A DNA stretch of 64,000 nucleotides from Candidatus Zixiibacteriota bacterium (GTDB lineage: Bacteria; Zixibacteria; MSB-5A5; GN15; FEB-12), in the NCBI GenBank assembly GCA_034003725.1, contig JAVEYB010000003.1, forward strand, positions 49,486-113,485. Direction: 5' to 3'. The stretch's first letter is position 1. Every line of letters begins with the position of its first letter. Both the position numbers and the translations under genes were made by a program. The notes under the pieces are model-generated. The model did not search any database. It saw only the letters and a program-made list of their open reading frames with translations, and was not told where the DNA came from. Below, piece after piece: positions 5,404 to 39,830 of this stretch.

Positions 5404-5481
5404 CAAGCGATCTGTCAGTGGTGCGGAGATAGAAACTGTACAAGCGAGTCGAGTTTTGTATATTGGTGCAGGAGGGACGTT

Positions 5482-8418: not shown

Positions 8419-8508
8419 CTCGGATCCTTACTGGTCTGATGCAGGACAGTCCCTTGTCTTTCCTTGTTTATATCGGCGGCTGGGCGCAGACACTTGAGGC
8501 GTGATCGG

Positions 8509-15206: not shown

Positions 15207-16013
15207 TTATAACTCCTTGAGACGGTCCTTCGCTTGTGGCGCTTCAGGAGACTCGGGATAGTCGCTGACGATCTTCTGAAACAGGGTACGCGCCTCATCC
15301 TTCCGTCCGAGTTCCTGCTTGGCGCGTCCGATCTTGTACATGGCCGAGACCAGCTTGGATGACTTCGGATAGGTCGCCACGAGGTGTTCGAATTCCGGCA
15401 CGGCCCGATCATATCGTTCCTGCCGGTAGTAGCATTCGCCGATCCAGAAATAGGCATCGGATACGTTGCTGTGCGTGCCGCACTCGGCCAGGAAGTTCCT
15501 GAAGCCGTCGATTGCACGGTCGTACTGCTCGGCCCGGACAAGCAGGAATGTCTCATCGTAGGTCGAGTCGCAGTTGTACAGAGTTGTCACCGGCGGCGGA
15601 GGCGGCGTGCCCGGAGCGGCGTTGGTCGGGCCGGTGTGGGTCGCATCGCCGACCGATCCTCTCAGCACCCCGCGTGACTCGAGTTGCCGCCGCATCTGGT
15701 TCAACTCGTTGACCAGCTGGTTGTAATTTTCCAGCAGGGTCGAAATCTGCTGCTGCAGCTCGGCCATCGAAAGGCGCACGTCGGAGCGAAGCGCGTTGTT
15801 GGATGCGGTCGACGTCGCGATCAGTGAGTCCACGCGCTCGACGATATTGGCGTTGGTGCGATTCTGGGACTCGATCCGCGTCAACTGGTCTTTGATTTCT
15901 TCGACGTCGCGCTTGGTTGCGCACGAGGAGAACAGCAGGCCGACAAGAAGAACCGCCGTCAGGACGACGGCGGTTCTTGGCATATGTCTTACACTAAACA
16001 TGATTGCCACCAC
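15207..16013 (-). CDS. ybgF: Tol-Pal system protein YbgF/CpoB (coiled coil + TPR)
   Basis: It has a signal/anchor, an N-terminal coiled coil ('IEEIKDQLTRIESQ..') and a C-terminal TPR ('YDRAIDGFRNFLAECGTHSNVSDAYFWIGECYY', 'AKQELGRKDEARTLFQKIVSDYPES'). It sits directly downstream of pal. Confidence 0.7.
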   Translation of the reverse strand: MVAIMFSVRHMPRTAVVLTAVLLVGLLFSSCATKRDVEEIKDQLTRIESQNRTNANIVERVDSLIATSTASNNALRSDVRLSMAELQQQISTLLENYNQLVNELNQMRRQLESRGVLRGSVGDATHTGPTNAAPGTPPPPPVTTLYNCDSTYDETFLLVRAEQYDRAIDGFRNFLAECGTHSNVSDAYFWIGECYYRQERYDRAVPEFEHLVATYPKSSKLVSAMYKIGRAKQELGRKDEARTLFQKIVSDYPESPEAPQAKDRLKEL

Positions 16014-16022
16014 AAATCGTGG

Positions 16023-16538
16023 CTACTGCGAGATAATGCGGAACTCGACGCGACGGTTCTTGGCCCAGGCGGCCTCGGTGTGGCCGTTGTCGGCCGGACG
16101 CTCTTCGCCATAGCTGATCGTCGACAGGCGAGCCGCATTGATTCCGCGGTCCACGAGGTATTTCTTCACCGCGTTGGCGCGTTTCTCGCCGAGCGCGATG
16201 TTATACTCGACGGTGCCGCGCTCATCGCAGTGTCCCTCGAGCATCAGCATCGCATTCGGAAATTCCACGAGTTTCTCGTAGTTTTTATCCAGCGACGTCA
16301 TTGCATCGGGGCGGAGGTTGAACTTGTCGAAATCGAAATACACGGTTTCGAGCTGTGATTCTTTCAACTCCGGCGGCGGCGGTGGCGGCGGCGGCGGAGG
16401 CGGCGGCGGTTCCGGAGTCGTATCCTGTACTACCGGAGTAGGTTCTTCGGGCGGCGGCGGAGGGGTCTTCCCCGGGCAGCCGGCGAGAACCGCCATCAGA
16501 AAAGTGGCACCCAGTAACAGAAAAAGCGCTTTCTTCAT
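16023..16538 (-). CDS. pal: Peptidoglycan-associated lipoprotein Pal (OmpA-like domain) with long polyproline linker
   Basis: Lipobox 'LAGC'. OmpA-like region 'VYFDFDKFNLRPDA..LEGHCDERGTVEYNIALGEKRANAVKKYL..ISYGEERP'. It lies in the tol operon. Confidence 0.85.
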   Translation of the reverse strand: MKKALFLLLGATFLMAVLAGCPGKTPPPPPEEPTPVVQDTTPEPPPPPPPPPPPPPELKESQLETVYFDFDKFNLRPDAMTSLDKNYEKLVEFPNAMLMLEGHCDERGTVEYNIALGEKRANAVKKYLVDRGINAARLSTISYGEERPADNGHTEAAWAKNRRVEFRIISQ

Positions 16539-16731
16539 ACTTCCCTGCCCTTCCTAGCGGGTATAGCGTAAAGTTATCTGTGTCAAGCCAATAACGGCTC
16601 GAATCTATACAACGAGCACGTCCGGGTCAACAAAAATCGACCAAACATTCCCCCCCGGGACAGTCTCTGCGTCGGGATACCTCGGACCCCGGAAGGCGGC
16701 CGAGGGTACCGACAGGCGCCCCTGCGGCGTG

Positions 16732-18048
16732 TCACCGCCTCGGAAGCGGCCCCCAGGCCGGATTTGTGACGTTTCCTTCGGAAGTCAGTCGCCGCTGGTT
16801 GCGTCCCGACAAATCCATCGTAAAAATATCTCCTCCGCTCAGGCGTGTGGAACTGAAGACGATGTGCTTGCCGTCGGGGGAGAAGTGGGGATTTTCGTTC
16901 GTGCCGAGCTGGGTCATGATGCGGTAGTCGTATCCTGACGTATCGATCGAGGCCAGGTCGAACCGTCCGCGCGGCGTGCGAGAGACAAAGGTGATTCTAT
17001 CACCGCGATGCGACCAGATCGGCGAGTCGTTATATCCTCCGGCGAACGTCAACCGACGCGTCTCGATACCGTCGGCGTCCGAAATGTAGATCTGGGGCGA
17101 TCCCGTCCGGTCCGACGAATACGCGATATAACGACCGTCGGGGGACCAGGTGGGAGACGACTCGATTGCCGGATGTCGCGTCACACGCTTGATGATACGA
17201 CCTTCGAGATCCAGCACGTAGATTTCGTGGTCGCCGTCTTTCGAAAGTACACAGGCGATTTTCTTGCCATCGGGCGAAACGGACGGCGCGGTTACCGATC
17301 CCGGGAAATCGCCGATTTTCCGTTCCTCGCCGGTATTCACATCGACCCGGTACAACTGCGGCGAACCGCCTTTGTAGCTGGTGAAATAGACGTGTTCGGC
17401 GTCGGGGGCGAAGGCGGGAGACACGTTGATCGATTTATTATTGGTCAGTTGCTTTTCGTTGGCCCCGTCGTAGTCCGCCATAAACAGCTCTTTGGCCTGG
17501 CCGATCTTTTTGATATACGCGATCTTCGTGCGGAAAATGCCCGGGTCGCCGGTCATTTCCTGCACCACCTGATTGGCGACATCGTGAGCCAGCAGTCGCC
17601 AGAACTGGCGATGATAGTCGAAATGACCGTCGGCGATCTCCCGTCGAGAGCGAGTATCATACAGCCGCCATGTGACGCGCATGTTGGCGCCGGGGAAGGA
17701 GCCGTCGAGCTTCACGACATAATCAGCGCCGAGGCGCTGCCATCCGCCGATATCGAGCTCGGTCAATTCGTACGTTTCCATGTAGAACGGATCGAGCGGG
17801 ATCAGCTCGAAGTCCGCGTAGAAATCCAGGTCGTTTTGAATCACACGCACCACGTACTGCATCAGCAGGGAGTCGTCGGCGGAGATCGGATCCGAGGTCG
17901 CGGGTTTCATGTTGTCAACCGCCACCGGGATGGCACGGAAACCGCCGGAGATGGTGTCAAAGGGAATGGTGCGGACGCTCGTGTCCTGAGCGGCTGCGCT
18001 GCCGGCCAGGATGACGAGTGTTGCCCAGACTGCCAGACCGAATTTCAT
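16732..18048 (-). CDS. tolB: Tol-Pal system beta-propeller protein TolB
   Basis: Signal peptide MKFGLAVWATLVILAGSAAAQD. It has repeated 'SPxFSPDGKxIxF/YxS' propeller blades ('PAFAPDAEHVYFTS', 'PSVSPDGKKIACV', 'PTWSPDGRYIAYSSDR', 'PHFSPDGKHIVFSS'). The listed ORF was trimmed to the ATG at 18048. Confidence 0.85.
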   Translation of the reverse strand: MKFGLAVWATLVILAGSAAAQDTSVRTIPFDTISGGFRAIPVAVDNMKPATSDPISADDSLLMQYVVRVIQNDLDFYADFELIPLDPFYMETYELTELDIGGWQRLGADYVVKLDGSFPGANMRVTWRLYDTRSRREIADGHFDYHRQFWRLLAHDVANQVVQEMTGDPGIFRTKIAYIKKIGQAKELFMADYDGANEKQLTNNKSINVSPAFAPDAEHVYFTSYKGGSPQLYRVDVNTGEERKIGDFPGSVTAPSVSPDGKKIACVLSKDGDHEIYVLDLEGRIIKRVTRHPAIESSPTWSPDGRYIAYSSDRTGSPQIYISDADGIETRRLTFAGGYNDSPIWSHRGDRITFVSRTPRGRFDLASIDTSGYDYRIMTQLGTNENPHFSPDGKHIVFSSTRLSGGDIFTMDLSGRNQRRLTSEGNVTNPAWGPLPRR

Positions 18049-18058
18049 TACGAGTCCT

Positions 18059-18805
18059 TTACCTGTTCGTAAACGGTACGGTAATCCCGATGATTTCGTC
18101 GCGGAATTCCCTCGGGAGCGGGGTGAACGGTTTGGAGCGCTCGATCGCCGCGACGCAGGCGTCATCAAAGGCCGGGACGCCGCTGGGCGTCTGCACTTTG
18201 ATTTCGAGCACCCGGCCGGAGCGAATAACCTGAAAATAGACCACGCACACGAGCTTGGCGTCGGTATTGATCGGGTTCTGGAAATTGTTCGCTATCTGTG
18301 TGAACGCCAGGTCAAACCAGTACGGATAGTCGAACGAGGCGTTGTCGACGCGAGCGCCGGCGAACGGCGATCCGGAGGCGCTCACTTCGACATCGGTAGA
18401 GCCGTCGGCCGTGCCCGCGCGGCGCGTATCGCCGGTCACGGCGTCGAGGTTTTTCTGTGTCTTGTCGGGTTTTTTCTGTTCCGGCTTTTTGACGGGCGCG
18501 GGCTTCGTCTCCGGGATTTTCACCGGCTTGGCCGTGACCGGGTCATCGATCGGAATTACTTCCGGTTCCGCTTCCATCGCTTTGGGAATCGTCAGCGGCT
18601 TGATCGGCTGCGGCGGGGCGTCGGGCTGGACCGGCAGCGGCGGCGCGGAGATCAGTCTGACGGAGATGACGTTGCCGAGCGTGTCGGGCCGCGAGGCGAA
18701 GGTCACGGGAAGAAACGTCGATGCGACGATCATCACGTGCAGGATCACCGACAGCGTGATGTCTTTCGAGGAGAGGTCGGTGCGTATGGAGGCTGCTTTT
18801 CGCAC
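18059..18805 (-). CDS. TolA-like protein (N-terminal anchor, Pro/Lys-rich linker, TonB-type C-terminal domain)
   Basis: TM 'LSVILHVMIVASTFLPV', linker 'PVKIPETKPAPVKKPEQKKPDK', C-terminal 'GRVLEIKVQTPSGVPAFDDACVAAIERSKPFTPLP'. It lies between tolR and tolB. Confidence 0.65.
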   Translation of the reverse strand: MRKAASIRTDLSSKDITLSVILHVMIVASTFLPVTFASRPDTLGNVISVRLISAPPLPVQPDAPPQPIKPLTIPKAMEAEPEVIPIDDPVTAKPVKIPETKPAPVKKPEQKKPDKTQKNLDAVTGDTRRAGTADGSTDVEVSASGSPFAGARVDNASFDYPYWFDLAFTQIANNFQNPINTDAKLVCVVYFQVIRSGRVLEIKVQTPSGVPAFDDACVAAIERSKPFTPLPREFRDEIIGITVPFTNR

Positions 18806-18807
18806 GG

Positions 18808-19230
18808 CTATTTTCGCCCGCCTTCCTCGTGTCCGGTGACCAGGCCGATCGCCTCGATGCCCATTTCTTTCATGCGGCCGATGATGTCGATCACCGCCCC
18901 GTACGCGACCGCGGAGTCGCCGCGCACGTATACCGACCCGGTGTTCTTACTGACCATTTCCGCTTTGAGGCGCTCTTCGAAATTGGTCGGGTTCGAGAAA
19001 ACGTCGTTGATATACACGCCGCCTTTCTTGTCGACCGTAATCACCACGCCTTCGGCTTCTTCCTCGATGGCCGCGGCTGTCGTTTTCGGCAGGTCGATTT
19101 CAATACCCGACTGCAGCAGCGGCGCGGAGATCATGAAGATGATCAGCAGCACGAGGACCACGTCAACGAGATTGGCGATATTGATATCGGCCATGGTGTG
19201 GTACGAGCGGATATGGCGCCGACGGATCAT
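18808..19230 (-). CDS. tolR: Biopolymer transport protein TolR/ExbD
   Basis: 'MADINIANLVDVVLVLLIIFMISAP' (the conserved TM with Asp) and 'VYVRGDSAVAYGAVIDIIGRMKEMG'. It overlaps tolQ by 4 nt. Confidence 0.85.
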   Translation of the reverse strand: MIRRRHIRSYHTMADINIANLVDVVLVLLIIFMISAPLLQSGIEIDLPKTTAAAIEEEAEGVVITVDKKGGVYINDVFSNPTNFEERLKAEMVSKNTGSVYVRGDSAVAYGAVIDIIGRMKEMGIEAIGLVTGHEEGGRK

Positions 19231-19919
19231 CGCGATTCCTTCTTTGCGCGGGCGATGAAATCGAGCACGAAGGCGTTGGTGTGGTCGGTCAGCTGTCGCA
19301 TGAAGTTGTTCGCCCAGTTGTAAGCGATCACGGCGGGGATGGCGGCGCCGAGTCCGACGATAGTGGCCAGCAGCGCTTCGGCAATACCGGGTGCGACCAC
19401 CGCCAGCGACGCCGACCCGCGCTCGCCGATCGACCAGAACGAATCCATGATGCCGACGACCGTACCGAGAAGGCCCATGAAGGGGGCCGAAGATCCGGTG
19501 GTGGCCAAAAAGACGTTTCGTCGTTCGAGCCGCGACAATTCATCGGTGCCGACCTTCTGCATGGTCATCTCGACGATCTCGAAGTCATCGTTGTCGAGTC
19601 GATCGAGTTGGTTCTGGAGTCCGCCGCCCTCGTTTTTGAGTTCGCGCAGCCGGGTCATCTCTTCATAGCCGGCGGTATACATGGTGGCCAGCGGAGAGAG
19701 GGCGTACGATTTGGCCTGACCGATCGAATCCGCCAGGCGTCGCGAACGGCTGAACTGGGCGCGGAACTGCGCGTCGGCGTGCGACACGGCGCGAAACAGG
19801 CGCCACTTGTGTCCGATAATGGCCCATGACACCAGTGACATGGTGACCAGCACAATCAGGATAAAGACGCCGAATGTGGACGTCTGTTTGATAATCTGCC
19901 AAATCGAGATGCTCTCCAT
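19227..19919 (-). CDS. tolQ: MotA/TolQ/ExbB-family proton channel, TolQ
   Basis: Three TM segments. 'LATTGSSAPFMGLLGTVVGIMDSF' and 'VAPGIAEALLATIVGLGAAIPAVIAYN' are family hallmarks. Confidence 0.85.
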   Translation of the reverse strand: MESISIWQIIKQTSTFGVFILIVLVTMSLVSWAIIGHKWRLFRAVSHADAQFRAQFSRSRRLADSIGQAKSYALSPLATMYTAGYEEMTRLRELKNEGGGLQNQLDRLDNDDFEIVEMTMQKVGTDELSRLERRNVFLATTGSSAPFMGLLGTVVGIMDSFWSIGERGSASLAVVAPGIAEALLATIVGLGAAIPAVIAYNWANNFMRQLTDHTNAFVLDFIARAKKESR

Positions 19920-20152: not shown

Positions 20153-20422
20153 ATGAAGAAACTGCTGATACTGCTGTTTTGTTCAGTGCTGGTGATCGCC
20201 GTGGTTGCCAGTTGCGGTCAGAAGAAGACCGAGGACGGCGACATGTCCGCCGGCGGTCACGCCGACGAGATGGCCGATACCACGCGGATGCACGAAGGTG
20301 TGGTTGACTCGCTGATCGGCGAAGGGGAAGCGCTGCTTGATTCCGCCGCCGCTGCGGGCGAGCAGATGATTGACTCCGCCGCTGCAGCGGGCAAGAAGAT
20401 GATCGAAGGCGCCGGACACTAA
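20153..20422 (+). CDS. Small lipoprotein of unknown function
   Basis: AAGGAG RBS. Lipobox 'VVASCG'. Internal repeat 'DSAAAAGEQMI / DSAAAAGKKMI'. Confidence 0.5.
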   Translation: MKKLLILLFCSVLVIAVVASCGQKKTEDGDMSAGGHADEMADTTRMHEGVVDSLIGEGEALLDSAAAAGEQMIDSAAAAGKKMIEGAGH

Positions 20423-20441
20423 GAGCGAACTACCGAAATTG

Positions 20442-20476
20442 AAAGGCCTCCCGTCATCAGGCGGGAGGCCTTTTTT
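20442..20476. terminator. Bidirectional hairpin terminator between convergent genes
   Basis: Stem ggcctcccg / cgggaggcc flanked by an A-run on the left and a T-run on the right ('gaaaggcctcccgtcatcaggcgggaggccttttttc'). Confidence 0.7.
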
Positions 20477-20492
20477 CATTTGATCGATCGAA

Positions 20493-21614
20493 TCAGCCTT
20501 CGATCATCTCCACGTTGGCGCGTGGTACGATTGCCCGGGAGCCGTCGGCAAACTCGACTTCGAGGATTCGCGCGCGTGATTCAGATTCAAGCGTCTGGAG
20601 CGGCGCCGGCAGATCGGTGACGAGGCCCAGTCGGCCGAAGTGGGGGTGGCGGATGACGCGGATGGGCGACCCTTTCTGCAGGCCGAGTACCTCGCCGCTC
20701 TGTTCCGCCTGCGCCACATGTTCGGTCTTGGTGGGGATGACCACTTCCGGGCGAATCACGCCCGCCCTGATCTGGGTGGCCCCGTTCATACAGGCCAACT
20801 CGCCCTCGTGACGTTTCAGAAGGGAAAAGGTCTTCTGGGCCATGTCGATTTTGCCGAATCCTTCGGTCACGACAAGCGTCACGCCGATCTCTTCGGAGCC
20901 GGTGATGGCGACCCCGATGTCGTAGCCGAGGAAGTCGCGAAGGTCTTTGTCGTCGAATCCGCCGGTGACGATTCCCTTGACGCCCGCCTTGATGGCCTTC
21001 TTCAGCGCGGCCGCGGTGACCTGGGAGCCGCCGACGATGATTTTGCCCTTCATGCTGTCGTTGATCATGTTTTCGTCGAGCACGGTCGAATTGTCCGGGG
21101 TGGCCATCATAATGGGGCCGAACGTCTCTCCACCGATGCCGAAAATGCCCTGAACGAAGGACCCGATACAGGTCACGACCACGCCCTCGTTGGGGATGAC
21201 TTCGGTCACTTCCCCTTTGACGTACGCCTTGACTTCGACCGGAGTCGGGTGCCCTCGCTGCAGCACCTGGCCGGTGACGCTTGAGACGGACTCGATAGAG
21301 CCGTCGATGGTCGCGGCACAGCGCGACTTGAATATCCACAAGGAGACCGACAGCGCGATCTCTTCGCCTTCCTTGATCGGATCGCCCGCCTTTTTGGTCA
21401 TCACCAGCTCGAGGTCTTCGGGCGGGACGCCGAGTTTGTTGGCGACGTTGATCGGGACCACCTGACCCGGCAGGTGCGTGCGCGCGACCACCGTCTGCGG
21501 CTCGACCTTGTCACCGACTTTGACGATTACATCACCCTTGAGCGGGAGAATGCGCTGCTTTTTGATGACGACTTGATCCGTTACTTTCAGACCGGGCGTA
21601 TACGCGTGACCCAT
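20493..21614 (-). CDS. Conserved hypothetical protein (373 aa), last gene of the GlmL-like operon
   Basis: Coding-like composition with no TM segments. N-terminal barrel-sandwich-like segment 'KGDVIVKVGDKVEPQTVVART', central 'IIVGGSQVTAAALKKAIKAGVKGIVTGG', SH3/KOW-like tail. I cannot assign a family name. Confidence 0.6.
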   Translation of the reverse strand: MGHAYTPGLKVTDQVVIKKQRILPLKGDVIVKVGDKVEPQTVVARTHLPGQVVPINVANKLGVPPEDLELVMTKKAGDPIKEGEEIALSVSLWIFKSRCAATIDGSIESVSSVTGQVLQRGHPTPVEVKAYVKGEVTEVIPNEGVVVTCIGSFVQGIFGIGGETFGPIMMATPDNSTVLDENMINDSMKGKIIVGGSQVTAAALKKAIKAGVKGIVTGGFDDKDLRDFLGYDIGVAITGSEEIGVTLVVTEGFGKIDMAQKTFSLLKRHEGELACMNGATQIRAGVIRPEVVIPTKTEHVAQAEQSGEVLGLQKGSPIRVIRHPHFGRLGLVTDLPAPLQTLESESRARILEVEFADGSRAIVPRANVEMIEG

Positions 21615-21639
21615 GGGGGGTACCCTTCCCTATATCGAA

Positions 21640-22434
21640 CTACTCTTTCTCGTGTTGGTTGCGTCGTTTGCGACGCGCTGCCAGCGCGATGATGATGATC
21701 ACCACCGCGGCTGTGGGTATCACCACCGTCGTTTTCGAGACCCCGGAGGCGCCGTCCCGCTTCTGCAGGTGCTCGGGGTCGGCCAGCTTGACACTTTCAC
21801 GCGGCATTCGCTGAGCCACGTCTTCGGTGGAAAACGACATGAGGATGTCATAGAACTGCGGACGGTATTCGTCAAAGGTCGAGTCGGGCGCAAAGAAGTA
21901 GAAATGTGCGGTCCCCTTTTCGTAGAACCGCAGGCAGTAGAGGTGCTTCTTGAATCCCTGCTGTTCATCGCCTACGTCGGTCAGACGGATGAACAACATC
22001 CGATCCCGGTCATAGGCCGGGCGATCGACCTCCAGCGCCGCGAAAGACTCCTGAATTGGTCTGTATTGGACTTCCTCGCCAAACAGGTCGGCCAGCTCGG
22101 CAACGACAGAATCGCGCGCCCGCCGATCCATTTCGCCGCTCGTGTCCACGGTGACGATGAGGTACTCATAGTCGTGGAACGGTGCGAGCTTGCGGGCCGA
22201 AAACACGGCGTCGTAATCATAGGTGTCGGGGTCGGCCTGAAGTTGCTGCAGGTAGTAGTCTACCGTCTGGTAGTCGACCTGCCACCACTGATCCGGGTAC
22301 TCGATGTAGAACCCACCGTTCAGCGAGACGAACACTTTGGCGAGTGCGCCGGTCGAGAGTACGATGACAGCGAGCAAACCGACCACAACAGCAAGCCGGC
22401 TTGTTTTCCGTAGGGGGGAACTCTGCGTGCTCAT
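21640..22434 (-). CDS. Membrane-anchored hypothetical protein (N- and C-terminal TM helices, acidic/aromatic central domain)
   Basis: TM 'LAVVVGLLAVIVLSTGALA' and TM 'VVIPTAAVVIIIIALAA' followed by 'RRKRRNQHEKE'. Its start overlaps the upstream gene's stop by 4 nt (ATGA). Confidence 0.55.
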   Translation of the reverse strand: MSTQSSPLRKTSRLAVVVGLLAVIVLSTGALAKVFVSLNGGFYIEYPDQWWQVDYQTVDYYLQQLQADPDTYDYDAVFSARKLAPFHDYEYLIVTVDTSGEMDRRARDSVVAELADLFGEEVQYRPIQESFAALEVDRPAYDRDRMLFIRLTDVGDEQQGFKKHLYCLRFYEKGTAHFYFFAPDSTFDEYRPQFYDILMSFSTEDVAQRMPRESVKLADPEHLQKRDGASGVSKTTVVIPTAAVVIIIIALAARRKRRNQHEKE

Positions 22435-24290
22435 TTTACGTGCTTCAGAGCTCCTTCGGGGTAAATATTCAGTTCGGTGGCCCAGGAGACGAGATGCGAC
22501 ACGCGCTCGTGTTCGCTCAGCGACGACAGGTCAAACGGTCGTCCGCGCCCGTCGAGAATGATACCGACCACGCCACCATGAATTTCGCGCTCAACGGTTT
22601 TGCCGGGTCCGGCGCCGACATCGAAGTTTCGTTCCGGTTCAAACCGCGCCTTCGCCCTCAGCGGCAGGCTGTCCGGTCCCATCCCGAGTTCAAACCGCTT
22701 CATTTCCAGGAAGTTGAGCGTGCCGCTCACCTGGCCGGAGGGGAGGTCAATCGAGTACTTCATGACCGGTCCGCCCTTTTTGGACACCCCGGCGGGGGCG
22801 ATGCAGGTGCCGAGGTGAATCAGGCAGTCTTTCTCGAACACTTCAGTCGCGGCTTTCGGCTGAACCTCGGTGAGTACGCCGAGCTGCGGCATCATGAAGA
22901 TTGAATCCACGGCGAGCCGGGTGATCCCCTCGGGTAAGAAGGAATCGATCATCATGAGCGCCGACTGCTGGCGGCGCGGCGCGTGTGAGAGCACTCCGCC
23001 GGAGCCGATCAGCATGTCGAGCGTCATCATATTGACGATCGTTTTTCCGGAGGAGCTCTGGTCGAACGCGTCGGCGATCGTCCGTTGCTGCTGGACGCCT
23101 TTCAGCACGGTGGCGAAGTTCTTATGCTGGACGAAGGCCAGGCGCAGCGCCTCGCGCGCAATGGCCTGCTCGAAAATCAACTCTTCCATCGACTGCGGAA
23201 TGGTCGTCGGGCGAATCATTTTGTTTTTCACGCGGTTGCGCAGGTCGCGCTCATCCATGATAAACGGAACCCATCGCATGACCATCGGCAGCGTCGCCTC
23301 GGCAAACACATTCGAGATCGAATAGGACATGCCGAGGTTCGCCGATACCGTGCGGTTGAAGACCGGCTGGTCGTCGGGACGGAAAACCGAGAACACGTCG
23401 GTTGTCGCACCGCCGATATCGACCCCGACCGCTTCGATGTTATATTGTCTGGCGATAGTCTGGATGATCAGGCCGACCGCGCCCGGAGTCGGCATGATCG
23501 GGGCGTCGGTCCACGACATCAGCTTTTTGTATCCGGGCGCCTGCGCCATCACGTGCTCCATAAACAGCTCGTGAATCTCTTCGCGGGCAGGTCCGAGGTT
23601 TTCACGCTCGAGGACGGGGCGGAGGTTGTCGACCGACCGGAGGTCCACTTTATCAGCCAGCACTTTTTCGACATCTTTGGTGGCGTCCCGGTTACCCGCA
23701 TAAATGATCGGGAGCTTGTAGGATGATCCCAGGCGGGGGCGCGGGTCGGCCGCCGACACGAGCTCGGCGAGTTCAACGACGTGAGTGGTCGTTCCGCCGT
23801 CGATACCGCCGGACAGAAGGATCATGTCGGGGCGCAAGTGCCGGATACGTTCTATTTGCTGATGCGGCAGGCGCTTGTCGTTGGACGCGATCACGTCCAT
23901 GACAATCGCCCCGGCCCCCAGCGCGGCGCGTTCAGCGGATTCGGCCGTCATCGACCGCACCACTCCCGCCACCATCATCTGAAGACCGCCGCCGGCCGAC
24001 GACGTCGAGATATACACGTCGGTGCCGACATCACCTCTCGACGGTGTGATGAACTTACCGTTTTCGTCGAGAATTTTGCGTCCGGAGAGCTCCTCGAGTT
24101 CGCCGACCGCGTTGAGCACGCCCATGGTAACGTCTTCGAATGGCGCCTCAACAGTCGTCGGCGCTTCGCCACGGGTGGTCTGGCGATACTCGCCGTTGAT
24201 ATACTCAATGAGAATGGCTTTGGTGGTGGTGGATCCGCAGTCGGTTGCAACGATGATCTTAATGTCGTCCGGATTATCGAATTTAGCCAT
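22431..24290 (-). CDS. GlmL/MutL-family protein (glutamate-mutase-L-like, actin/ASKHA-fold ATPase), long 619-aa form
   Basis: 'IIVATDCGSTTTKAILI', 'ISTSSAGGGLQMMVAGV..TAESAERAALGAGAIV', 'MILLSGGIDGG' and 'AVGVDIGGATTDVFSV' are the phosphate-1/2 and adenosine motifs of the GlmL (MutL) family. Confidence 0.7.
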   Translation of the reverse strand: MAKFDNPDDIKIIVATDCGSTTTKAILIEYINGEYRQTTRGEAPTTVEAPFEDVTMGVLNAVGELEELSGRKILDENGKFITPSRGDVGTDVYISTSSAGGGLQMMVAGVVRSMTAESAERAALGAGAIVMDVIASNDKRLPHQQIERIRHLRPDMILLSGGIDGGTTTHVVELAELVSAADPRPRLGSSYKLPIIYAGNRDATKDVEKVLADKVDLRSVDNLRPVLERENLGPAREEIHELFMEHVMAQAPGYKKLMSWTDAPIMPTPGAVGLIIQTIARQYNIEAVGVDIGGATTDVFSVFRPDDQPVFNRTVSANLGMSYSISNVFAEATLPMVMRWVPFIMDERDLRNRVKNKMIRPTTIPQSMEELIFEQAIAREALRLAFVQHKNFATVLKGVQQQRTIADAFDQSSSGKTIVNMMTLDMLIGSGGVLSHAPRRQQSALMMIDSFLPEGITRLAVDSIFMMPQLGVLTEVQPKAATEVFEKDCLIHLGTCIAPAGVSKKGGPVMKYSIDLPSGQVSGTLNFLEMKRFELGMGPDSLPLRAKARFEPERNFDVGAGPGKTVEREIHGGVVGIILDGRGRPFDLSSLSEHERVSHLVSWATELNIYPEGALKHVK

Positions 24291-24542
24291 CTGAAAACCG
24301 CTATGTGAGAAAGTGTATTGTTCTTCTATCTTATTGTCTCTCTTCGAGGTATAGGCGGTTGTTGCCGCGTTACCCCGACTGAATCAGACAACGAGTATAA
24401 CATACCCTGCAAAGTTTGTAAAGCGCCATTTTACCTCGGAGGCCCGCTTCAGTCGGAAGAGCCGGAGGCCCGGAGTCATGGCGAAACGGACCCGCAAGCT
24501 GTTGTGTGGCAGGAAGATGGCGGCGACAGCCGATTTTTTCGC

Positions 24543-24572
24543 TTGACTTGGTGGTGGAGCGCTTCTTAATTA
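24543..24572 (+). promoter_or_regulatory. Candidate sigma70-type promoter for the 12-gene cassette operon
   Basis: TTGACT (24543-24548), a 17-nt spacer, then TTAATT (or an 18-nt spacer and TAATTA). This would leave a leader of about 150 nt before the TTG start at 24730. Confidence 0.3.
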
Positions 24573-24729
24573 CCACCTTTCGCTGGGAACGGTAGTGCAA
24601 TTCCCCGCTGGTGAGGCTGACGGGACCGGGGCACTTCGGTTAATCACTGTTTGATAAACGGTCCGGATCAGCCGTCTCTCCAGAAAGTGCCGGCACGTGC
24701 GGACTGATATTCGGTAAGGGAGCCTGAGC

Positions 24730-25986
24730 TTGACATTGCCACCTACGAGGTCCACCTCCCGCGCGATTGTTTCGCTTCTACTGGCGATTGTACTCGCCTG
24801 GGCCCCGCCATTGGCCGCTCAGGATCAACCCGGCGTTCCTTCCGACACTATTCTTTCAGACACTACTCTGCAGATTCTTCTGCCGCGTCCCGTGCCCGCG
24901 GTGACCGTCAAGGATACGCAAGACGACGGCGGCGGCTCGATCACGGTAACCTGGGAGGCATCGGCCGATGACGGCGATGGCGGGATCATTAACCGGTATG
25001 TGATCTACCGGGCGACATCGGCGGAAGGCCCTTTTGAAGAAGTGGGCGATGCCACCAACAACGCCACGACCTTTTCCGACGGGAGTGCGGAAGACGACGT
25101 GGCGTATTTTTATCGGGTAGTTCCGATGACGCTGGCGCTGGCCGGCCAGCCGGTGCCCCCGGCGCTGGTCGAGGGCGCGATGGTTGCCGGTCCGGTGAGT
25201 TCGTCGGCCCAGTGGCTTGACTGGCGGCGGATCAACGTACTGGTTGGCGTGCTGCTGCTGTGCGTTTTCATTATCTACTACATCAATCAGGCGAAAGCCG
25301 GCAAGTCGTTGTTTATCCGCAAGATTGCCGGACTGGAAGCGGTGGACGAAGCGGTCGGGCGCGCCACCGAGATGGGCAAAAAGATTTACTATATCCCCGG
25401 CACGCAGGACATGGACAATGTCCAGACGATTGCGGGCGTCACCATTCTGGGCCGGGTCGCGGAGCTTGCCGCTCAATACGAAACATATCTGCAGGTGCCG
25501 GTTTCGCGTTCGCTGGTGCTGGTCACCGCTCGCGAAATCGTCAAGGAAGCCTACTCGAAGGCGGGGCGCCCGGATGCCTTTCAGGAGGATCAGGTTCATT
25601 ACCTGACCGACGATCAGTTCGGTTATGCCGCCGGTATCGACGGGATGGTGGTGCGGGAGAAGCCCGCCACGATTTTCTTCATGGGAGCTTTTTACGCCGA
25701 GTCGCTGATTCTCGCGGAGACGGGCAATTCGATCGGGGCGATTCAGATTGCGGGCACCGGGATGCCGTCCCAGTTGCCCTTTTTCGTCGCGGCGTGCGAC
25801 TACACGCTGATCGGCGAGGAGTTGTTTGCGGCCTCGGCGTATTTGTCGCGCGAGCCCAAGCTGCTTGGATCGCTGAAAGGGCAGGATATGGGCAAGGCGG
25901 TCATACTTATCGCGATAGTCGTCGGGCTCGTTCTCGAGACCTTCGGTATATGGAGCTTCTCCAGGCTTTTTTCGGTGATACAGTAG
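24730..25986 (+). CDS. Cassette subunit A1: signal peptide + FN3-like periplasmic head + TM + conserved ~195-aa core + C-terminal TM; uncharacterised family
   Basis: TTG start 7 nt after AAGGGAG. Leader 'AIVSLLLAIVLAWAPPLAAQD'. FN3-like pattern 'SITVTWEAS..INRYVIYRATS..YFYRVVPM'. TM 'INVLVGVLLLCVFIIYYI' followed by 'KAGKSLFIRK'. Core motifs 'GRATEMG', 'AESLILAETG' and 'LIGEELFAASAYL' are shared with A2 and A3. Confidence 0.8.
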   Translation: MTLPPTRSTSRAIVSLLLAIVLAWAPPLAAQDQPGVPSDTILSDTTLQILLPRPVPAVTVKDTQDDGGGSITVTWEASADDGDGGIINRYVIYRATSAEGPFEEVGDATNNATTFSDGSAEDDVAYFYRVVPMTLALAGQPVPPALVEGAMVAGPVSSSAQWLDWRRINVLVGVLLLCVFIIYYINQAKAGKSLFIRKIAGLEAVDEAVGRATEMGKKIYYIPGTQDMDNVQTIAGVTILGRVAELAAQYETYLQVPVSRSLVLVTAREIVKEAYSKAGRPDAFQEDQVHYLTDDQFGYAAGIDGMVVREKPATIFFMGAFYAESLILAETGNSIGAIQIAGTGMPSQLPFFVAACDYTLIGEELFAASAYLSREPKLLGSLKGQDMGKAVILIAIVVGLVLETFGIWSFSRLFSVIQ

Positions 25987-25987
25987 C

Positions 25988-26635
25988 ATGCGTAGAGAAA
26001 TTCCTCTGATCATAACGGGCATCGTGGGCATCGTGTTCGTCGTCCAGTACTTCATTCCGCACTGGCCGTTCAACCGCATGAATGCCTGGTTTTCGGACTG
26101 GTTCTCTATCGTGCAGGCGTGCGCAATCTGGCTGGGCGCGCTGAACCTGCTGAAGATTTCGCTGGAGAAAATCGCGCGGCGCAAGTCAGACTGGGGCTAC
26201 GCGGTCGTGATCATCGTGAGCTTTTTGCTGATCGCGATTATCGGGTTCCTCGAAGGCGAGGCGTTCCGTGACCCCGGCACCAAGTTTACGTGGCTGTACG
26301 ATTTCGTGTACACGCCGCTGTCGTCGACCATGTTTGCAATCCTGGCGTTTTTTGTCGCGTCGGCGTCCTACCGCGCCTTCCGGGCGCGCAATTTTGAGGC
26401 GACCCTGTTGCTGCTGGCGGCCTTTTTCGTGATGCTCGGGCGGGTGCCGGTCGGCGACGCGCTGACGGCGTTTATGCCCGAGGGATGGCGATTGACCGAC
26501 CTGGCCACCTGGATCATGAACTTCCCGCAGACGGCCGGACAGCGCGCCATCATGATCGGTATTGCGCTGGGCATCGTGTCGACTTCGCTGCGGATTATTC
26601 TCGGGATCGAGCGGTCTCACCTCGGAGGCGATTGA
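25988..26635 (+). CDS. Cassette subunit B1: ~6-TM integral membrane protein; uncharacterised family
   Basis: ATG 1 nt after the A1 stop. 'MRREIPLIITGIV', 'LAFFVASASYRAFRARN' and 'AGQRAIMIGIALGIVSTSLRIILGIER' are shared with B2 and B3. Confidence 0.8.
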   Translation: MRREIPLIITGIVGIVFVVQYFIPHWPFNRMNAWFSDWFSIVQACAIWLGALNLLKISLEKIARRKSDWGYAVVIIVSFLLIAIIGFLEGEAFRDPGTKFTWLYDFVYTPLSSTMFAILAFFVASASYRAFRARNFEATLLLLAAFFVMLGRVPVGDALTAFMPEGWRLTDLATWIMNFPQTAGQRAIMIGIALGIVSTSLRIILGIERSHLGGD

Positions 26636-26636
26636 C

Positions 26637-27647
26637 ATGAGCACTCGCGTGAAAGAAATCCTTGTCGTCGTCCTGGTGTTGCTCTTCAGCGCCGTGATCT
26701 ATGCCGGCAAAGTCTCCGGCTGGATGACGGGGGTCAGCTTCTCGCCGGCGGTGTCTGTATTAGTGATCGTCGCACTGGCGGCGTCGCTGATCGTGATCCT
26801 GGTGATGACTATCAAGGGCCGGCTGGTGGGCCGGCGCACGGTCTTTTTGTATGTCGGCTTCGCCGTGGCGCTGCCGTTGTTCATGTCCATCAGCCAGTAC
26901 ATACCGACATCGCCCGAGGTTCGTTCGCTTTACGAAGGGCTGGAGTCGCTTCCCGACGGTTCCAAAGTGCTGGTTTCATTCGACTACGATCCGCCGTCCG
27001 CGCCCGAGTTGCAGCCGATGGCGGAGTCGTTTTTCCGGTACGCGTTCGATCGTAAGTTCAAAGTCATCATCATGGGGCTCTGGCCCCAGGGACCGCTGCA
27101 GGCCAACCAGGCAATCGAGCGCGTGATGCAAGACGAGAAGTACGCGTCGCTCGGCCTGCAATACGGTGTGGATTACTGCAACCTGGGTTTTCAAACCGGG
27201 AACGAATTCGTCATTCAACGCATGGGATCGGACTTCCGGTCCATGTTTCCGACCGACTACAGCGGGACGCATTACGAAGACCTGCCGATCGTGAGAAACG
27301 TCAAGAATTTCTCGAACGTCGATTACGTGTTCAATCTCTCGGCCGGTTACCCGGGGACGATCGAGTGGGTGCAGGTGGCGGTTGACCGCTACGGGGTCAA
27401 ACTCGGCGCAGGGAACACCGCGGTGCAGGCGCCCCAGTGTTATCCGTACCTGCGGTCGGGACAGTTAATCGGCATACTGGGCGGGATGAACGGCGCCGCC
27501 GAGTTCGAGAAGATGACCGGTCATGAGGCGAAGGGCACGAAGTTTATGCTGTCGCAGTCGTTTTCGCATATGATCGTGATCGCGTTTATCATCATCGGCA
27601 ACGTCGCGTTTTTCATGGGCGGCCGGAAGAGCAACCTGTCGGCATGA
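26637..27647 (+). CDS. Cassette subunit C1: membrane protein with N-terminal TM(s), ~250-aa predicted periplasmic domain and C-terminal TM; uncharacterised family
   Basis: ATG 1 nt after the B1 stop; the listed ORF was trimmed. 'SFDYDPPSAPELQPMAESF', 'YPYLRSGQLIGILGGMNGAAEFE' and the C-terminal TM 'HMIVIAFIIIGNVAFFMGGRK' are shared with C2 and C3. Confidence 0.8.
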   Translation: MSTRVKEILVVVLVLLFSAVIYAGKVSGWMTGVSFSPAVSVLVIVALAASLIVILVMTIKGRLVGRRTVFLYVGFAVALPLFMSISQYIPTSPEVRSLYEGLESLPDGSKVLVSFDYDPPSAPELQPMAESFFRYAFDRKFKVIIMGLWPQGPLQANQAIERVMQDEKYASLGLQYGVDYCNLGFQTGNEFVIQRMGSDFRSMFPTDYSGTHYEDLPIVRNVKNFSNVDYVFNLSAGYPGTIEWVQVAVDRYGVKLGAGNTAVQAPQCYPYLRSGQLIGILGGMNGAAEFEKMTGHEAKGTKFMLSQSFSHMIVIAFIIIGNVAFFMGGRKSNLSA

Positions 27648-27664
27648 CGGTGGAAGGTCAGTAG

Positions 27665-28312
27665 ATGTTCTGGGAACACTTTGCACTCTGGGTCGCCGCG
27701 TTTCTGACGCTCGGGATCTACTCGTTCCTGTACAAGGACAACCCGTGGTACAAGCTGTGCGAGTCGATCTTTGTCGGCATCTCGGCCGGCTACTGGTTTG
27801 TCACGCTGTTCTGGGATAACATCTACGGCAAGTTCTGGGTCGGCGTGTTCCCGACCGGAGACGCCCAGCCCGATTACTGGCTTTTGGTGGGCGCGGCGCT
27901 GGGGCTGTTGATGCTGTTGCGCCTGATTCCGAAGATCGGCTGGGTGTCGCGCTGGTCGCTGGCCTTTATCGTGGGTGCGACCGCCGGATTTTACCTGATC
28001 AATTATTTCTCCTCGAACGTCATGCGCCAGGTGCAGGACACCGTGATGCCGCTGTTCGGGCCGGGCTTCAATGCCTCCGCGTATGTCATCATCGGCAACA
28101 TCGTCGTGGCCGTGGGCACGTTTACCGGGTTGGTATATTTCTTCTTCTCGAAGGAGCACAAAGGGGCGTTCGGGGCATCGGCGAAGATCGGGATATTCTT
28201 TCTGATGGTCACCTTCGGCGCGTCGTTCGGCTACACGGTGATGAGCCGTATGTCCCTGTTGATCGGACGTATAGACTTTCTTCTGAGCGACTGGCTGGGG
28301 TTGATTCGCTAG
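27665..28312 (+). CDS. Cassette subunit D1: ~6-TM integral membrane protein; uncharacterised family
   Basis: 'FLTLGIYSFLYKDNPWYKLCESIFVGISAGYW', 'YFFFSKEHKGAFG' and 'FGASFGYTVMSRMSLLIGR' are shared with D2 and D3. Confidence 0.8.
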   Translation: MFWEHFALWVAAFLTLGIYSFLYKDNPWYKLCESIFVGISAGYWFVTLFWDNIYGKFWVGVFPTGDAQPDYWLLVGAALGLLMLLRLIPKIGWVSRWSLAFIVGATAGFYLINYFSSNVMRQVQDTVMPLFGPGFNASAYVIIGNIVVAVGTFTGLVYFFFSKEHKGAFGASAKIGIFFLMVTFGASFGYTVMSRMSLLIGRIDFLLSDWLGLIR

Positions 28313-29583
28313 TGCGATTCGCGCCGATGACAGACGGGGGACGTCGCACTCGCCTCACGGTCGTTGTCCTCGCAGCGTGCTTCACCATCAGTATTATCGC
28401 CGTCTCCGTATCGGGGCAGTCGGAGACCGTTTCCATCGCGCCCGCCGATACCGCAATCGCGGTTCGCCCGCCCGCGCCTCCGACCTCGGTGGTTGCCGAG
28501 GACTACAAGTACGACAACGCCAAGCATCTCGTCTTGTCGTGGGTGCCCTCGATTGACGATCAGCCCGGCCGCACGCTGGTCCTGGGCTATCGCATTTTCC
28601 GTTCGTCGGGCGGCGGGGCTTTTATGCCTGCGGGCTCGGCGCTGCCCGGCGCGTCCTCGTTCCGCGACGAACGATTGAGCAAAGATTCCAGCTACGTGTA
28701 CTATGTCGCGGCGGTATCCGCCACCGATACGGTGGCGTCGATCAAAACGCAGGCGATTTCGCCGAAGCGCGAGTATCTGCATCTCGATCTGGTCTGGCTG
28801 TTCGTGATCGCGTTCTGCATATCTTCGTCGGTCATCTACTTCATCTGGAAAGCGCGCGCGGGCAAGAAGCTTTTTGTCCGCAAGATTGCGGGGTTGGACG
28901 CGGTCGACGAGGCCATCGGCCGCGCGACCGAGATGGGCCGCCCCATACTGTTTATTCCAGGCATACAGGACATGGACGACGTACAGACGATCGCCGGGCT
29001 GACGATACTGGGGCGGGTCGCCAAGCAGATCGCCGACTACGACACGCGCATCCGCATGCCGGTGTCGCGTTCGCTGGTGATGACGGCGGCGCGAGAGACG
29101 ATCAAGGCCGCCTACCAGATCGCGGGCCGCCCCGACGCGTACTCCGACGACATGGTGAATTACGTGACCGATGAGCAGTTCGGGTACGTGGCCGCGGTGG
29201 ACGGTATCATGGTTCGCGAGAAACCAGCCACGATCTTTCTGCTCGGCGCGTTTTTCGCCGAATCGCTCATTCTGGCCGAGACCGGAAATTCTATCGGCGC
29301 AATCCAGATCGCCGGCACCGCGCGACCGGCCCAGCTGCCGTTTTTTATCGCCGCGTGTGACTTCACGCTGATCGGCGAAGAGCTGTTTGCGGCGTCGGCG
29401 TATCTTTCCGGCGAGCCCAAGCAGCTTGGCTCGCTGAAGGGTCAGGATGTCGGCAAGGGACTGGCCATGGCGGCCATTCTGCTGGGTGTGCTGTCCGTGA
29501 CGCTCGGGCAGGCGTTTGATATCGGCTTCTTCAACTGGCTGGCCGACGGTCTGTCGACCATCTTCTCGGCGGCGGTGGAATAG
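28312..29583 (+). CDS. Cassette subunit A2 (paralog of A1)
   Basis: GTG start overlapping the D1 stop (TAGTG); ATG 28327 is an alternative. FN3-like pattern 'HLVLSWVPS..GYRIFRSS..YVYYVAAVS'. The core is about 74% identical to A1 by my hand count over about 195 aligned residues. Confidence 0.8.
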   Translation: MRFAPMTDGGRRTRLTVVVLAACFTISIIAVSVSGQSETVSIAPADTAIAVRPPAPPTSVVAEDYKYDNAKHLVLSWVPSIDDQPGRTLVLGYRIFRSSGGGAFMPAGSALPGASSFRDERLSKDSSYVYYVAAVSATDTVASIKTQAISPKREYLHLDLVWLFVIAFCISSSVIYFIWKARAGKKLFVRKIAGLDAVDEAIGRATEMGRPILFIPGIQDMDDVQTIAGLTILGRVAKQIADYDTRIRMPVSRSLVMTAARETIKAAYQIAGRPDAYSDDMVNYVTDEQFGYVAAVDGIMVREKPATIFLLGAFFAESLILAETGNSIGAIQIAGTARPAQLPFFIAACDFTLIGEELFAASAYLSGEPKQLGSLKGQDVGKGLAMAAILLGVLSVTLGQAFDIGFFNWLADGLSTIFSAAVE

Positions 29584-29585
29584 TC

Positions 29586-32019: not shown

Positions 32020-32064
32020 TTGAGGATATTACACGCAGGTACTCTTCATGACTGTGGAGGGACT

Positions 32065-33678: not shown

Positions 33679-33691
33679 GAGGACATGACTG

Positions 33692-34342: not shown

Positions 34343-34354
34343 GGAGAGAAGACT

Positions 34355-35230: not shown

Positions 35231-35236
35231 CGAGGT

Positions 35237-36835: not shown

Positions 36836-36970
36836 GCTGGGTTGCGACAACCAGATCTGAGGCGGCCGGAATCAGGAGGTTTCGGTCGCCTTTTCTGTTG
36901 CCTCACAACGTTTTTTTCTTAGATTGTTGGGACTTTACCAGAGTTTTTAAGTCCTAACTTGGGAGAACGT

Positions 36971-39805: not shown

Positions 39806-39830
39806 TCCGGTCATTTGTGCGCTTATTTTT

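Follow-up and report, generated by a model that had tools for sequence, protein, structure and literature searches.

A GlmL-type ATPase operon without a mutase as the possible ATPase unit of a conserved membrane-associated gene module

Introduction

In the diol dehydratase reactivase DdrA/DdrB and in EutA, an Hsp70-like ASKHA ATPase works together with a second protein, and ATP serves to remodel a partner complex. Or-4 is an ornithine-degradation protein related to GlmL. From some ABC and ECF systems it is known that one ATPase can serve several permease sets, while we know of no GlmL-type ASKHA protein that powers a membrane complex. Glutamate mutase is considered to have canonical MutL/GlmL as its chaperone, and the gene of the latter is found together with those of this B12-dependent enzyme in the arrangement glmS-glmL-glmE (PMC4682846). 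In the window analysed here (the whole stretch of 64,000 nucleotides), a gene of the MutL family is found in a different setting, back to back with a cassette of membrane protein genes.

Results

An earlier note had described a three-gene operon at positions 20493-24290 of the minus strand, and all three open reading frames are present in the ORF list. The first (22431-24290) encodes a protein of 619 aa that belongs to Pfam MutL (PF13941), referred to as MutL-long, the second (21640-22434) a membrane protein of 264 aa (TM264) and the third (20493-21614) a soluble protein of 373 aa (P373). The ATGA stop/start overlap, by which TM264 is translationally coupled to MutL-long, exists, as does the 25-nt spacer preceding P373, which contains the ribosome-binding-like stretch GGGAAGGG. 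Since clustering at 90% leaves over 8000 relatives in the database for MutL-long and for P373 each, their reading frames are not due to chance. Nineteen nucleotides past the P373 stop codon lies a GC-rich hairpin of 15 bp (20441-20474, no strand assigned). It is terminator-like and probably serves P373 and a convergent small lipoprotein gene.

The divergent control region, previously given as 440 bp, measures 439 bp (24291-24729). For the MutL-long operon, a sigma-70-like promoter on the minus strand (24394-24422; TTTACA, 17 nt, TATACT, with TG) was detected by a consensus scan, and when the divergent intergenic regions of 13 related loci were aligned, both of its hexamers proved to be conserved. 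The sigma-70-like promoter of the cassette on the plus strand (24543-24571; TTGACT, 17 nt, TTAATT, preceded by a T-run) was missed by the strict scan and its coordinates were read off the sequence. Across the same 13 loci, CTTGACTTG and aTagaTT are conserved, most relatives having ATAGATT where the window has TTAATT.

MutL-long matches Pfam MutL over residues 13-489 with 435 bits (gathering threshold 27 bits), covering model positions 1-450 of 450. Because the match spans these residues, the protein can be divided into a GlmL-like core (13-489) and a family-specific C-terminal extension of approximately 130 aa (490-619); an extra length of about 150 residues had been noticed before, which holds for the presence of additional sequence and only roughly for its size. 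The nucleotide-binding motifs were rightly called intact. The phosphate-1 (ATDCGSTTTK), phosphate-2 (GVDIGGATTD) and adenosine (GSGGVLSHAP) motifs are all there, placing the protein in the ASKHA ATPase superfamily. Within an alignment of 24 sequences (A8), D17-K24 (except T23), D291-D298 and S430-P438 (except V433) are invariant, and the other positions of the three motifs are at least 90-95% conserved. Identities of 64-88% to orthologues across phyla indicate that MutL-long is under very strong purifying selection.

In public records, this protein carries the label 'glutamate mutase L' or 'methylaspartate mutase'. This label, Pfam MutL membership and the chaperone role ascribed to MutL/GlmL (PMC4682846) would fit a reactivase of a B12-dependent mutase encoded elsewhere, in which case MutL-long would lie beside the cassette incidentally. 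The scores speak against such a role: MutL-long reached 240.3 bits with the GlmL equivalog NF040745 (cutoff 475), 222.4 bits with the Or-4 equivalog NF040744 (cutoff 600) and 175.1 bits with the family model TIGR01319 glmL_fam (cutoff 204.05). Moreover, the absence of a mutase or other B12-enzyme gene from the window, as earlier asserted, was borne out by a Pfam scan of nearly all called genes (all except UvrB and a few short ORFs), and among the neighbours of approximately 165 related loci no mutase-like family recurred. Thus, the linkage to a mutase that would place MutL-long with GlmL was found neither in the window nor recurrently at these loci. A consistently co-occurring B12 mutase, which according to the earlier note would have contradicted a link to the cassette, did not turn up in either data set. 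A cobalamin riboswitch was not found, and the conserved neighbours of MutL-long are P373, F6 and the cassette proteins A-D. Assignment to canonical GlmL was rejected on the basis of the score (240 versus 475 bits), the C-terminal extension and the lack of a mutase near the related loci, and a canonical reactivase role, largely refuted by scores and neighbourhoods without mutase or cobalamin riboswitch, is hardly credible.

The AlphaFold model of P373 (pLDDT 89.4) comprises an N-terminal beta-rich, barrel-sandwich-like part (residues ~1-170), a central alpha/beta domain (~190-295) and a small C-terminal barrel of KOW/Tudor type (~315-370), to which the matches with solved structures are confined. 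The family forms 2418 clusters at 50% identity. In 34 diverse homologues, 31 residues are invariant, including those in QGIFGxGGE, TEGFG and GxTQxRAGxxRPE. No sequence relation was found in comparisons of P373 with MutL-long, A and C.

For TM264, a transmembrane helix at each end had been proposed. The C-terminal helix was recovered; the N-terminus instead resembles a signal peptide that would be cleaved off (...STGALA/KVF). With such a peptide, the mature protein would expose about 200 aa as a domain in the periplasm and be fixed by a single anchor at the C-terminus, with a basic tail in the cytoplasm, as read from the sequence. By tblastn among loci L001-L081, the family was detected under 18 locus ids, which correspond to 17 distinct places as L001 and L003 coincide, all of them window-like loci, and an HMM search recovered 16 of the 18 ids. 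At every locus possessing it, TM264 lies between MutL-long and P373; neither Pfam nor NCBIfam gave a match. The three-gene set of the earlier note is therefore conserved with respect to MutL-long and P373, while TM264 is lineage-specific and stands outside the conserved core.

Divergent from the ATPase operon, 12 genes on the plus strand (24730-36046) form three tandem A-B-C-D sets, for which Pfam and NCBIfam confirmed the reported lack of an ATPase domain. The first set (24730-28312) is composed of A1 (24730-25986), B1 (25988-26635), C1 (26562/26637-27647) and D1 (27665-28312). According to hydropathy and the positive-inside rule, from which the topology of the module proteins was read, A1 has a signal peptide, an Fn3 ectodomain, a TM helix, DUF6754 and a second TM helix, C1 a periplasmic domain between two TM helices, and B1 and D1 have five to six TM helices each. 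The second set (28312-32019; A2 28312-29583, B2 29586-30263, C2 30260-31219, D2 31216-32019) is paralogous to the first (alignments A2-A5), and in the third (32020-36046; A3 32020-33678, B3 33692-34342, C3 34355-35230, D3 35237-36046) the ectodomain of A3 is enlarged. DUF6754 (PF20539), a Pfam domain of unknown function, was identified in A1, A2 and A3 with 421, 408 and 375 bits, exceeding the gathering threshold. Its 120 closest database relatives, the named ones belonging to Zixibacteria or GN15, are 80-100% identical, which indicates very strong purifying selection on this domain as well. Searches of Pfam, NCBIfam and PDB with A-D revealed no resemblance to a transporter family. An ABC/ECF-type transporter was rejected as neither a P-loop nucleotide-binding subunit nor a permease family occurs in the trio or in A-D; B gave one weak TMD0_ABC match (19.8 bits, cutoff 27). 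PADLOC defence models returned nothing at E <= 0.01 for nine proteins (MutL-long, TM264, P373, one each of A-D, F6 and F7).

At related loci, the conserved order is F6, MutL-long, P373, followed by A (DUF6754), B, C and D. MutL-long is located directly upstream of P373 at 52 of the 66 P373-anchored loci with enough flank, and at 80 DUF6754-anchored loci P373 follows every MutL-long match with room for a neighbour. The co-occurrence with A-B-C-D that the earlier note had proposed to examine for the three-gene set does exist for MutL-long and P373: of 33 testable species-level loci, 23 have A-B-C-D no more than 10 kb away from these two genes, and the linkage extends to a distant branch (P373 33-39% identical; order F6-A-B-C-D-MutL-P373) and to gene fusions. 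These 23 loci carry about ten phylum labels (unclassified MAGs included) and four gene orders, A-B-C-D being placed downstream on the same strand in 16, divergently in five, upstream in one and convergently in one. For a cassette within 10 kb in a genome of 3-4 Mb, the chance expectation may be roughly 1-2%. At least two independent MutL::P373 fusions (995 aa and 1003 aa) were found, the first on at least seven contigs, and A-B-C-D comes after the fusion gene. Altogether, the seven-family module is present in at least 557 species-level genomes and ranks among the most conserved gene sets of its genomes. The searched resources offered neither a functional annotation nor a solved structure nor any literature on six of the seven core families.

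Among A-B-C-D cassettes whose flanks are complete, about one in two occurs by itself, and a cassette is missing within 10 kb at 10 of the 33 loci with MutL-long and P373, so that linkage at the genome level is an assumption. The one nominally complete genome examined possesses elsewhere only a partial A gene without B-C-D, and in Poribacteria and WOR-3 there are loci with P373 and without MutL-long within 10 kb. The separate occurrence of cassettes and ATPase genes would be expected if MutL-long and P373 cooperated independently of A-B-C-D and owed their proximity to shared ancestry of gene order or to horizontal transfer of a block, and the high identities across phyla fit a lateral spread. 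However, the adjacency was kept through at least five rearrangements (inversion, change of order) and down to 33% P373 identity. Inherited order alone is therefore insufficient, and such independence is very unlikely.

Another explanation is metabolic. MutL-long and P373 could together make up a two-subunit, soluble enzyme that depends on ATP, be it a kinase, a hydrolase or carboxylase-like, as in other ASKHA families such as hydantoinase/oxoprolinase, and A-B-C-D could be the transporter of its substrate or product. Operons of this kind are common, as are fusions of enzyme subunits, MutL-long shows a weak Pfam match to Hydantoinase_A (E = 1.3e-4, just under the cutoff), and many of the invariant residues of P373 are charged, reminiscent of an active site. 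On the other hand, a single ATPase pair accompanies two or three A-B-C-D sets at some loci, A-D are unlike any transporter family, A and C have sizeable periplasmic domains (Fn3 included) without a binding protein, and neither riboswitches nor metabolic genes recur beside the module. An enzyme with its own transporter is thus an unlikely explanation.

By analogy with MreB-MreC-MreD and ParM-ParR, MutL-long might also form actin-like filaments which, with P373 as adaptor, position or organise A-B-C-D complexes. The actin fold, a conservation matching the level of cytoskeletal proteins and the bitopic and polytopic membrane partners are in line with this, and there is faint similarity to archaeal actin-like proteins, with MreB-like_C (16.9 bits, E = 0.01, Pfam cutoff 27.8) and Ta0583 (E = 0.26) as matches. 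These matches are below threshold, though, and MutL-long was not assigned to the filament families MreB, ParM, FtsA or MamK. Its own family consists of chaperone-like reactivases rather than filament formers, and a filament subunit covalently fused to its adaptor would be unusual, making a cytoskeletal role rather improbable.

Discussion

The operon is best interpreted as coding for an ATPase unit that resides in the cytoplasm and belongs to a membrane-associated system, conserved and not described so far; a probability of about 0.55 is given to this interpretation. To the same degree, it is likely that seven families make up the core of this system, namely the small protein F6, MutL-long, P373 and the membrane proteins A (DUF6754), B, C and D. 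The idea of the earlier note that a GlmL/MutL protein without a mutase is the partner of a cassette without an ATPase gains support, as MutL-long and P373 adjoin A-B-C-D at related loci, in several orders and as fusions.

In such a system, B and D would form the membrane core, A would contribute its Fn3 domain in the periplasm and an alpha/beta domain of about 200 aa in the cytoplasm, and C a periplasmic domain. MutL-long and P373 may bind to each other and dock from the cytoplasmic side. The most plausible docking site would be the DUF6754 domain, which is a guess because the structure model of this domain has low confidence (pLDDT 68). ATP binding and hydrolysis by MutL-long would bring about a domain-closure switch as in Hsp70 and the reactivases of B12 enzymes. 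Passed on via P373, this switch might drive or gate the action of A-B-C-D at the membrane or in the periplasm, an action that probably forms part of cell-envelope transport or assembly. In the lineage of the window, one ATPase pair would serve three paralogous A-B-C-D sets from a back-to-back promoter pair, and the periplasm-facing TM264 has taken the place of the usual small partners F6 and F7. A more far-reaching notion sees in MutL-long and P373 an ATP-driven engine that powers a previously unrecognised trans-membrane machine (F6, MutL-long, P373, A-D) in roughly twenty mostly uncultivated phyla. A membrane complex energised or gated by an actin-fold ATPase of the GlmL type would then be without precedent, and it would probably act in envelope transport or assembly. 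This notion is tentative and falls somewhat short of even odds.

The label 'glutamate mutase L' or 'methylaspartate mutase' is attached to thousands of metagenome-assembled genomes, and it would falsely credit Zixibacteria and related bacteria with fermenting glutamate in a B12-dependent manner; the MutL-long gene marks the seven-family module instead. If the ATPase pair indeed drives a membrane complex, this would be a new mode of coupling ATP to a membrane process and would give access to the biology of the cell envelope in phyla without cultured members. Expression and structural work is feasible immediately, since few genes are involved and the set is clearly delimited.

Compared to known systems, MutL-long shares the Pfam domain (residues 13-489) and the ASKHA motifs with GlmL/MutL and Or-4 (NF040745, NF040744, PF13941). 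It differs from them by scoring about half of what either equivalog requires, by the conserved 130-aa C-terminal extension and by its neighbours, which are P373 and usually F6 and A-D, and among which a mutase has not been seen. DdrA/DdrB and EutA are the mechanistic template for the proposed action of MutL-long and P373, except that their partner is a soluble B12 enzyme, while the partner proposed here is a membrane complex. MreB-MreC-MreD and PilM-PilN-PilO likewise combine a cytoplasmic actin-fold protein with bitopic proteins bearing periplasmic domains and small polytopic proteins, yet there is no detectable sequence relation and MutL-long belongs to another ASKHA branch. As with the shared ATPases of ABC and ECF systems, one ATPase unit stands with two or three paralogous membrane sets; here, by contrast, the ATPase is not of the P-loop type, and A-D match no ABC or ECF family.

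Organization of the ATPase operon

The ATPase operon consists of three minus-strand genes in a head-to-tail arrangement. They encode MutL-long, a GlmL/MutL-type ASKHA protein of 619 aa (22431-24290), the membrane protein TM264 of 264 aa (21640-22434), and P373, a protein of 373 aa (20493-21614) that is identical to RBT76_05095 of the Zixibacteria MAG from which the window derives. The ATGA coupling of the first two genes, reported in an earlier note, is visible in the window sequence as an overlap, and the spacer of 25 nt between the TM264 gene and the start of P373 was likewise confirmed; a GGGAAGGG stretch precedes this start. Between the P373 stop codon and a convergent small ORF, a GC-rich 15-bp hairpin (20441-20474) looks like a bidirectional terminator. 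The product of the small ORF (20153-20422, plus strand; 89 aa) carries a lipoprotein-type signal (…VVASCGQ). Farther downstream, a complete Tol-Pal cluster (TolQ, TolR, TolA-like, TolB, Pal and CpoB) occupies 15207-19919 of the minus strand. Since the hairpin and the lipoprotein-type ORF intervene, the trio should not be co-transcribed with tolQ-tolR-tolA-tolB-pal-cpoB.

On the other side, the operon diverges from the cassette of the membrane-protein families A (DUF6754), B, C and D. When 13 such divergent regions were aligned, two sigma-70-like promoters lying back to back proved to be conserved, one for the ATPase operon (24422-24394, minus strand) and one for the cassette (24543-24571, plus strand). 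No shared operator was seen between them, and the structure of the 5' leaders of both operons is not unusual (z = +0.8 and -2.0). Rfam searches detected no cobalamin or other riboswitch in the window and in seven diverse loci containing the module described below; an sX6 match (22.5 bits, gathering score 40) was dismissed.

Other genes of the window were also recorded. Directly past the cassette, 36959-42138 (plus strand) encodes pyruvate phosphate dikinase followed by ADP-forming acetyl-CoA synthetase. Two neighbouring stand-alone response-regulator receiver genes (8017-8907, minus strand; 133 and 132 aa) are devoid of an output domain. Large secreted proteins encoded at 89-1510 and 5314-6984 (plus strand) have FlgD-Ig-like C-terminal domains. 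A type IX secretion sorting domain (Por_Secre_tail) is also present in the second one, suggesting that this Zixibacteria genome encodes a T9SS.

A conserved gene module

MutL-long and P373 (the ATPase pair), the families A to D and a small family, F6, constitute a conserved gene module. A scan with the P373 alignment, taking one genome per species, yielded at least 557 species, the best 80 of which bear about 18 phylum-level labels and are MAGs throughout. MutL-long lies immediately upstream of P373 in 52 of the 66 P373 loci with enough flank. The association with A-B-C-D, which the earlier note had considered, was upheld at the locus level, as 23 of the 33 testable loci containing MutL-long and P373 have the cassette, always in this gene order, at a distance of no more than 10 kb. 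It lies downstream of P373 on the same strand in 16 of these 23 loci (labelled Eisenbacteria, Acidobacteriota, Latescibacterota, Dormiibacterota and Zixibacteria, among others), is divergent from the ATPase pair as in the window in five, and is located upstream or convergent in one locus each. Conversely, when the DUF6754 alignment was used to scan metagenome contigs, 80 further loci were obtained. The order A-B-C-D was not rearranged in any of them, a few having gaps or sets cut by the contig end, and P373 follows every MutL-long that has room for a neighbour. About half of the full-flank cassettes are adjoined by the ATPase pair. For the remaining ones no other conserved neighbour was seen, which fits extra cassette copies.

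F6 (~136 aa) and a second small family, F7 (~156 aa, two TM helices), closely precede MutL-long in 33 and 28, respectively, of the first 81 loci. Both are absent from the window and its clade, and Pfam and NCBIfam scans gave nothing for either. Distant P373 relatives (33-39% identity) reside in clusters of the order F6-A-B-C-D-MutL-P373. Moreover, MutL-long, including its C-terminal extension, is joined directly to P373 in two independent natural fusions of ~1000 aa (P0352/P0522; fusion genes at L163 10001-12988 and L164 7214-10201). One of them, from marine metagenomes, occurs on at least seven contigs, with F6 ahead of it and A-B-C-D behind it; the other comes from Candidatus Ozemobacteraceae. 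Thus, MutL-long and P373 are paired and occasionally fused. A reading of the pair as a soluble two-subunit enzyme, with A-B-C-D as a transporter, would accommodate the fusions and is considered unlikely.

Some loci depart from this pattern. P373 orthologues of Poribacteria (L053, L061, L065, L072, L080 and L081; 52-56% identical) have no MutL-long or A-D within 10 kb and are accompanied by PhyH dioxygenase and ABC-2 permease genes. In the MAG CP070824, which was submitted as a complete chromosome, a lone DUF6754 gene annotated as partial was seen 1.75 Mb from the trio (L162 10001-12388; 0.53-0.55 Mb). Behind it, an S49/NfeD-like protease gene takes the place of B-C-D, which may reflect a misassembly or a decayed cassette.

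Proteins of the ATPase operon

Residues 13-489 of MutL-long match Pfam MutL (PF13941) end to end with 435 bits. The scores against the GlmL equivalog (240 bits, cutoff 475), the Or-4 equivalog (222 bits, cutoff 600) and the glmL family model (175 bits, cutoff 204) are all below the cutoffs. The nucleotide-binding motifs had been described as intact, and the ASKHA phosphate-1, phosphate-2 and adenosine motifs are indeed all present. At the majority of motif positions, the 24 diverse sequences compared do not differ, two members at 44-48% identity included; the other positions are at least 90-95% conserved. The family is exceptionally well conserved, with 85-99% identity for the 120 best database clusters and still 64-70% for orthologues in other phyla. 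The extension (residues 490-619) is common to all orthologues (597-630 aa) and less conserved than the core. It closes with a conserved RVxKLxxWxxALxxYP motif (22431-22530) showing the spacing of an amphipathic helix, which could serve as a docking or membrane-binding element. A PDB sequence search with MutL-long yielded no related solved structure. An actin-like filament of MutL-long with P373 as adaptor would agree with the actin fold, and appears improbable.

TM264 consists of a signal-peptide-like N-terminus and a domain of ~200 aa, followed by a predicted single TM helix at the C-terminal end with a basic tail. Of the TM helices formerly assigned to both ends, the C-terminal one was retained and the N-terminal one resembles a signal peptide. 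The family is confined to window-like loci (17 distinct places among L001-L081 and six metagenome loci among L082-L161), and in each of them its gene is located between those of MutL-long and P373. Pfam and NCBIfam scans of TM264 gave nothing.

For P373, no Pfam or NCBIfam family was found. Its relatives number more than 8000 when clustered at 90% and form 2418 clusters at 50% identity, of which 478 have E <= 1e-30. Its AlphaFold model is confident (pLDDT 89.4) and predicts a beta-rich N-terminal part, an alpha/beta centre and a small C-terminal barrel. This KOW/Tudor-like barrel was the sole region matched by Foldseek in the PDB; sequence and profile searches of the PDB gave only sub-threshold biotinyl/KOW hints. 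Across 34 homologues (lowest identity 32%), 31 residues are invariant. Some relatives carry weak biotinyl/RnfC_N annotations. A role as biotin or lipoyl carrier was rejected, since the N-terminal hairpin region contains no invariant lysine in the 34 homologues.

The A-B-C-D cassette and a possible role of the ATPase pair

Protein A comprises a signal peptide, Fn3, a TM helix, an alpha/beta-type DUF6754 region of ~200 aa and a final TM helix. The polytopic proteins B and D each contain 5-6 TM helices, and C has a domain of ~220 aa flanked by TM helices, which by the positive-inside rule would lie on the periplasmic side. A3, the third DUF6754 paralogue of the window (32020-33678, plus strand; 552 aa), possesses an ectodomain of ~280 aa, far larger than that of A1 and A2; therefore, the three cassettes may differ on the periplasmic side. 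Comparisons by hhalign of A with C and of B with D detected no relation, and as far as sequence comparison goes the four families are mutually unrelated. Pfam scans of B, C and D gave zero family matches, A matched DUF6754 (no assigned function) and Fn3 only, and NCBIfam has no model for any of the four. PDB sequence and profile searches with A to D found only the Fn3 of A, which was also the sole Foldseek match of the A model, whose DUF6754 part is of low confidence. PADLOC defence models did not match the module proteins, and no ATPase domain was found in the cassette proteins.

We propose that MutL-long and P373 would form a cytoplasmic ATP-driven unit acting on an A-B-C-D complex through a conformational switch of the Hsp70 or reactivase type, and that a single ATPase pair may serve the three paralogous cassettes of the window genome. 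There are weak hints that the complex is tied to the cell envelope. Periplasmic domains are predicted in A, C and TM264. In three other Zixibacteria loci (L022 9281-9973; L027 6044-7993; L028 8852-9535), a GT2 glycosyltransferase gene is inserted between those of MutL-long and P373, and in one of the three a PMT_2 mannosyltransferase-family gene is present as well. In four WOR-3 loci, P373 is directly preceded by the gene of a TMEM260-like GT-C enzyme that contains TPR repeats (L039 7204-9999; L047 7140-9998). Finally, Tol-Pal genes adjoin the module in the window-like clade, namely in 16 of the 81 first loci (15 distinct places) and in four metagenome loci, in two orientations. A functional tie to Tol-Pal was weighed. 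Because this adjacency is limited to one clade among the loci compared, and a convergent gene and a terminator lie between in the window, it was taken as lineage synteny only.

Comparison with canonical MutL/GlmL

Pfam (2025), NCBIfam (2026), PDB (2026) and the literature searched offer only the DUF label and the name 'glutamate mutase L'. Since nothing further is given there on its families, the system is rated as new in kind, the role proposed here being hypothetical. The idea of a subunit-swap mimic, derived from diol dehydratase reactivase, is without sequence support, as hhalign showed no relation of P373 to MutL-long, A or C. The absence of a mutase or other B12 enzyme from the window, already pointed out in the earlier note, held, and none recurs near the module. 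Despite the end-to-end MutL match, a canonical B12-mutase reactivase is nearly excluded, and the name 'glutamate mutase L' is misleading for this family. The gene of canonical MutL/GlmL, regarded as a reactivating chaperone, sits between glmS and glmE (PMC4682846); by contrast, MutL-long lacks this context and is encoded next to P373.
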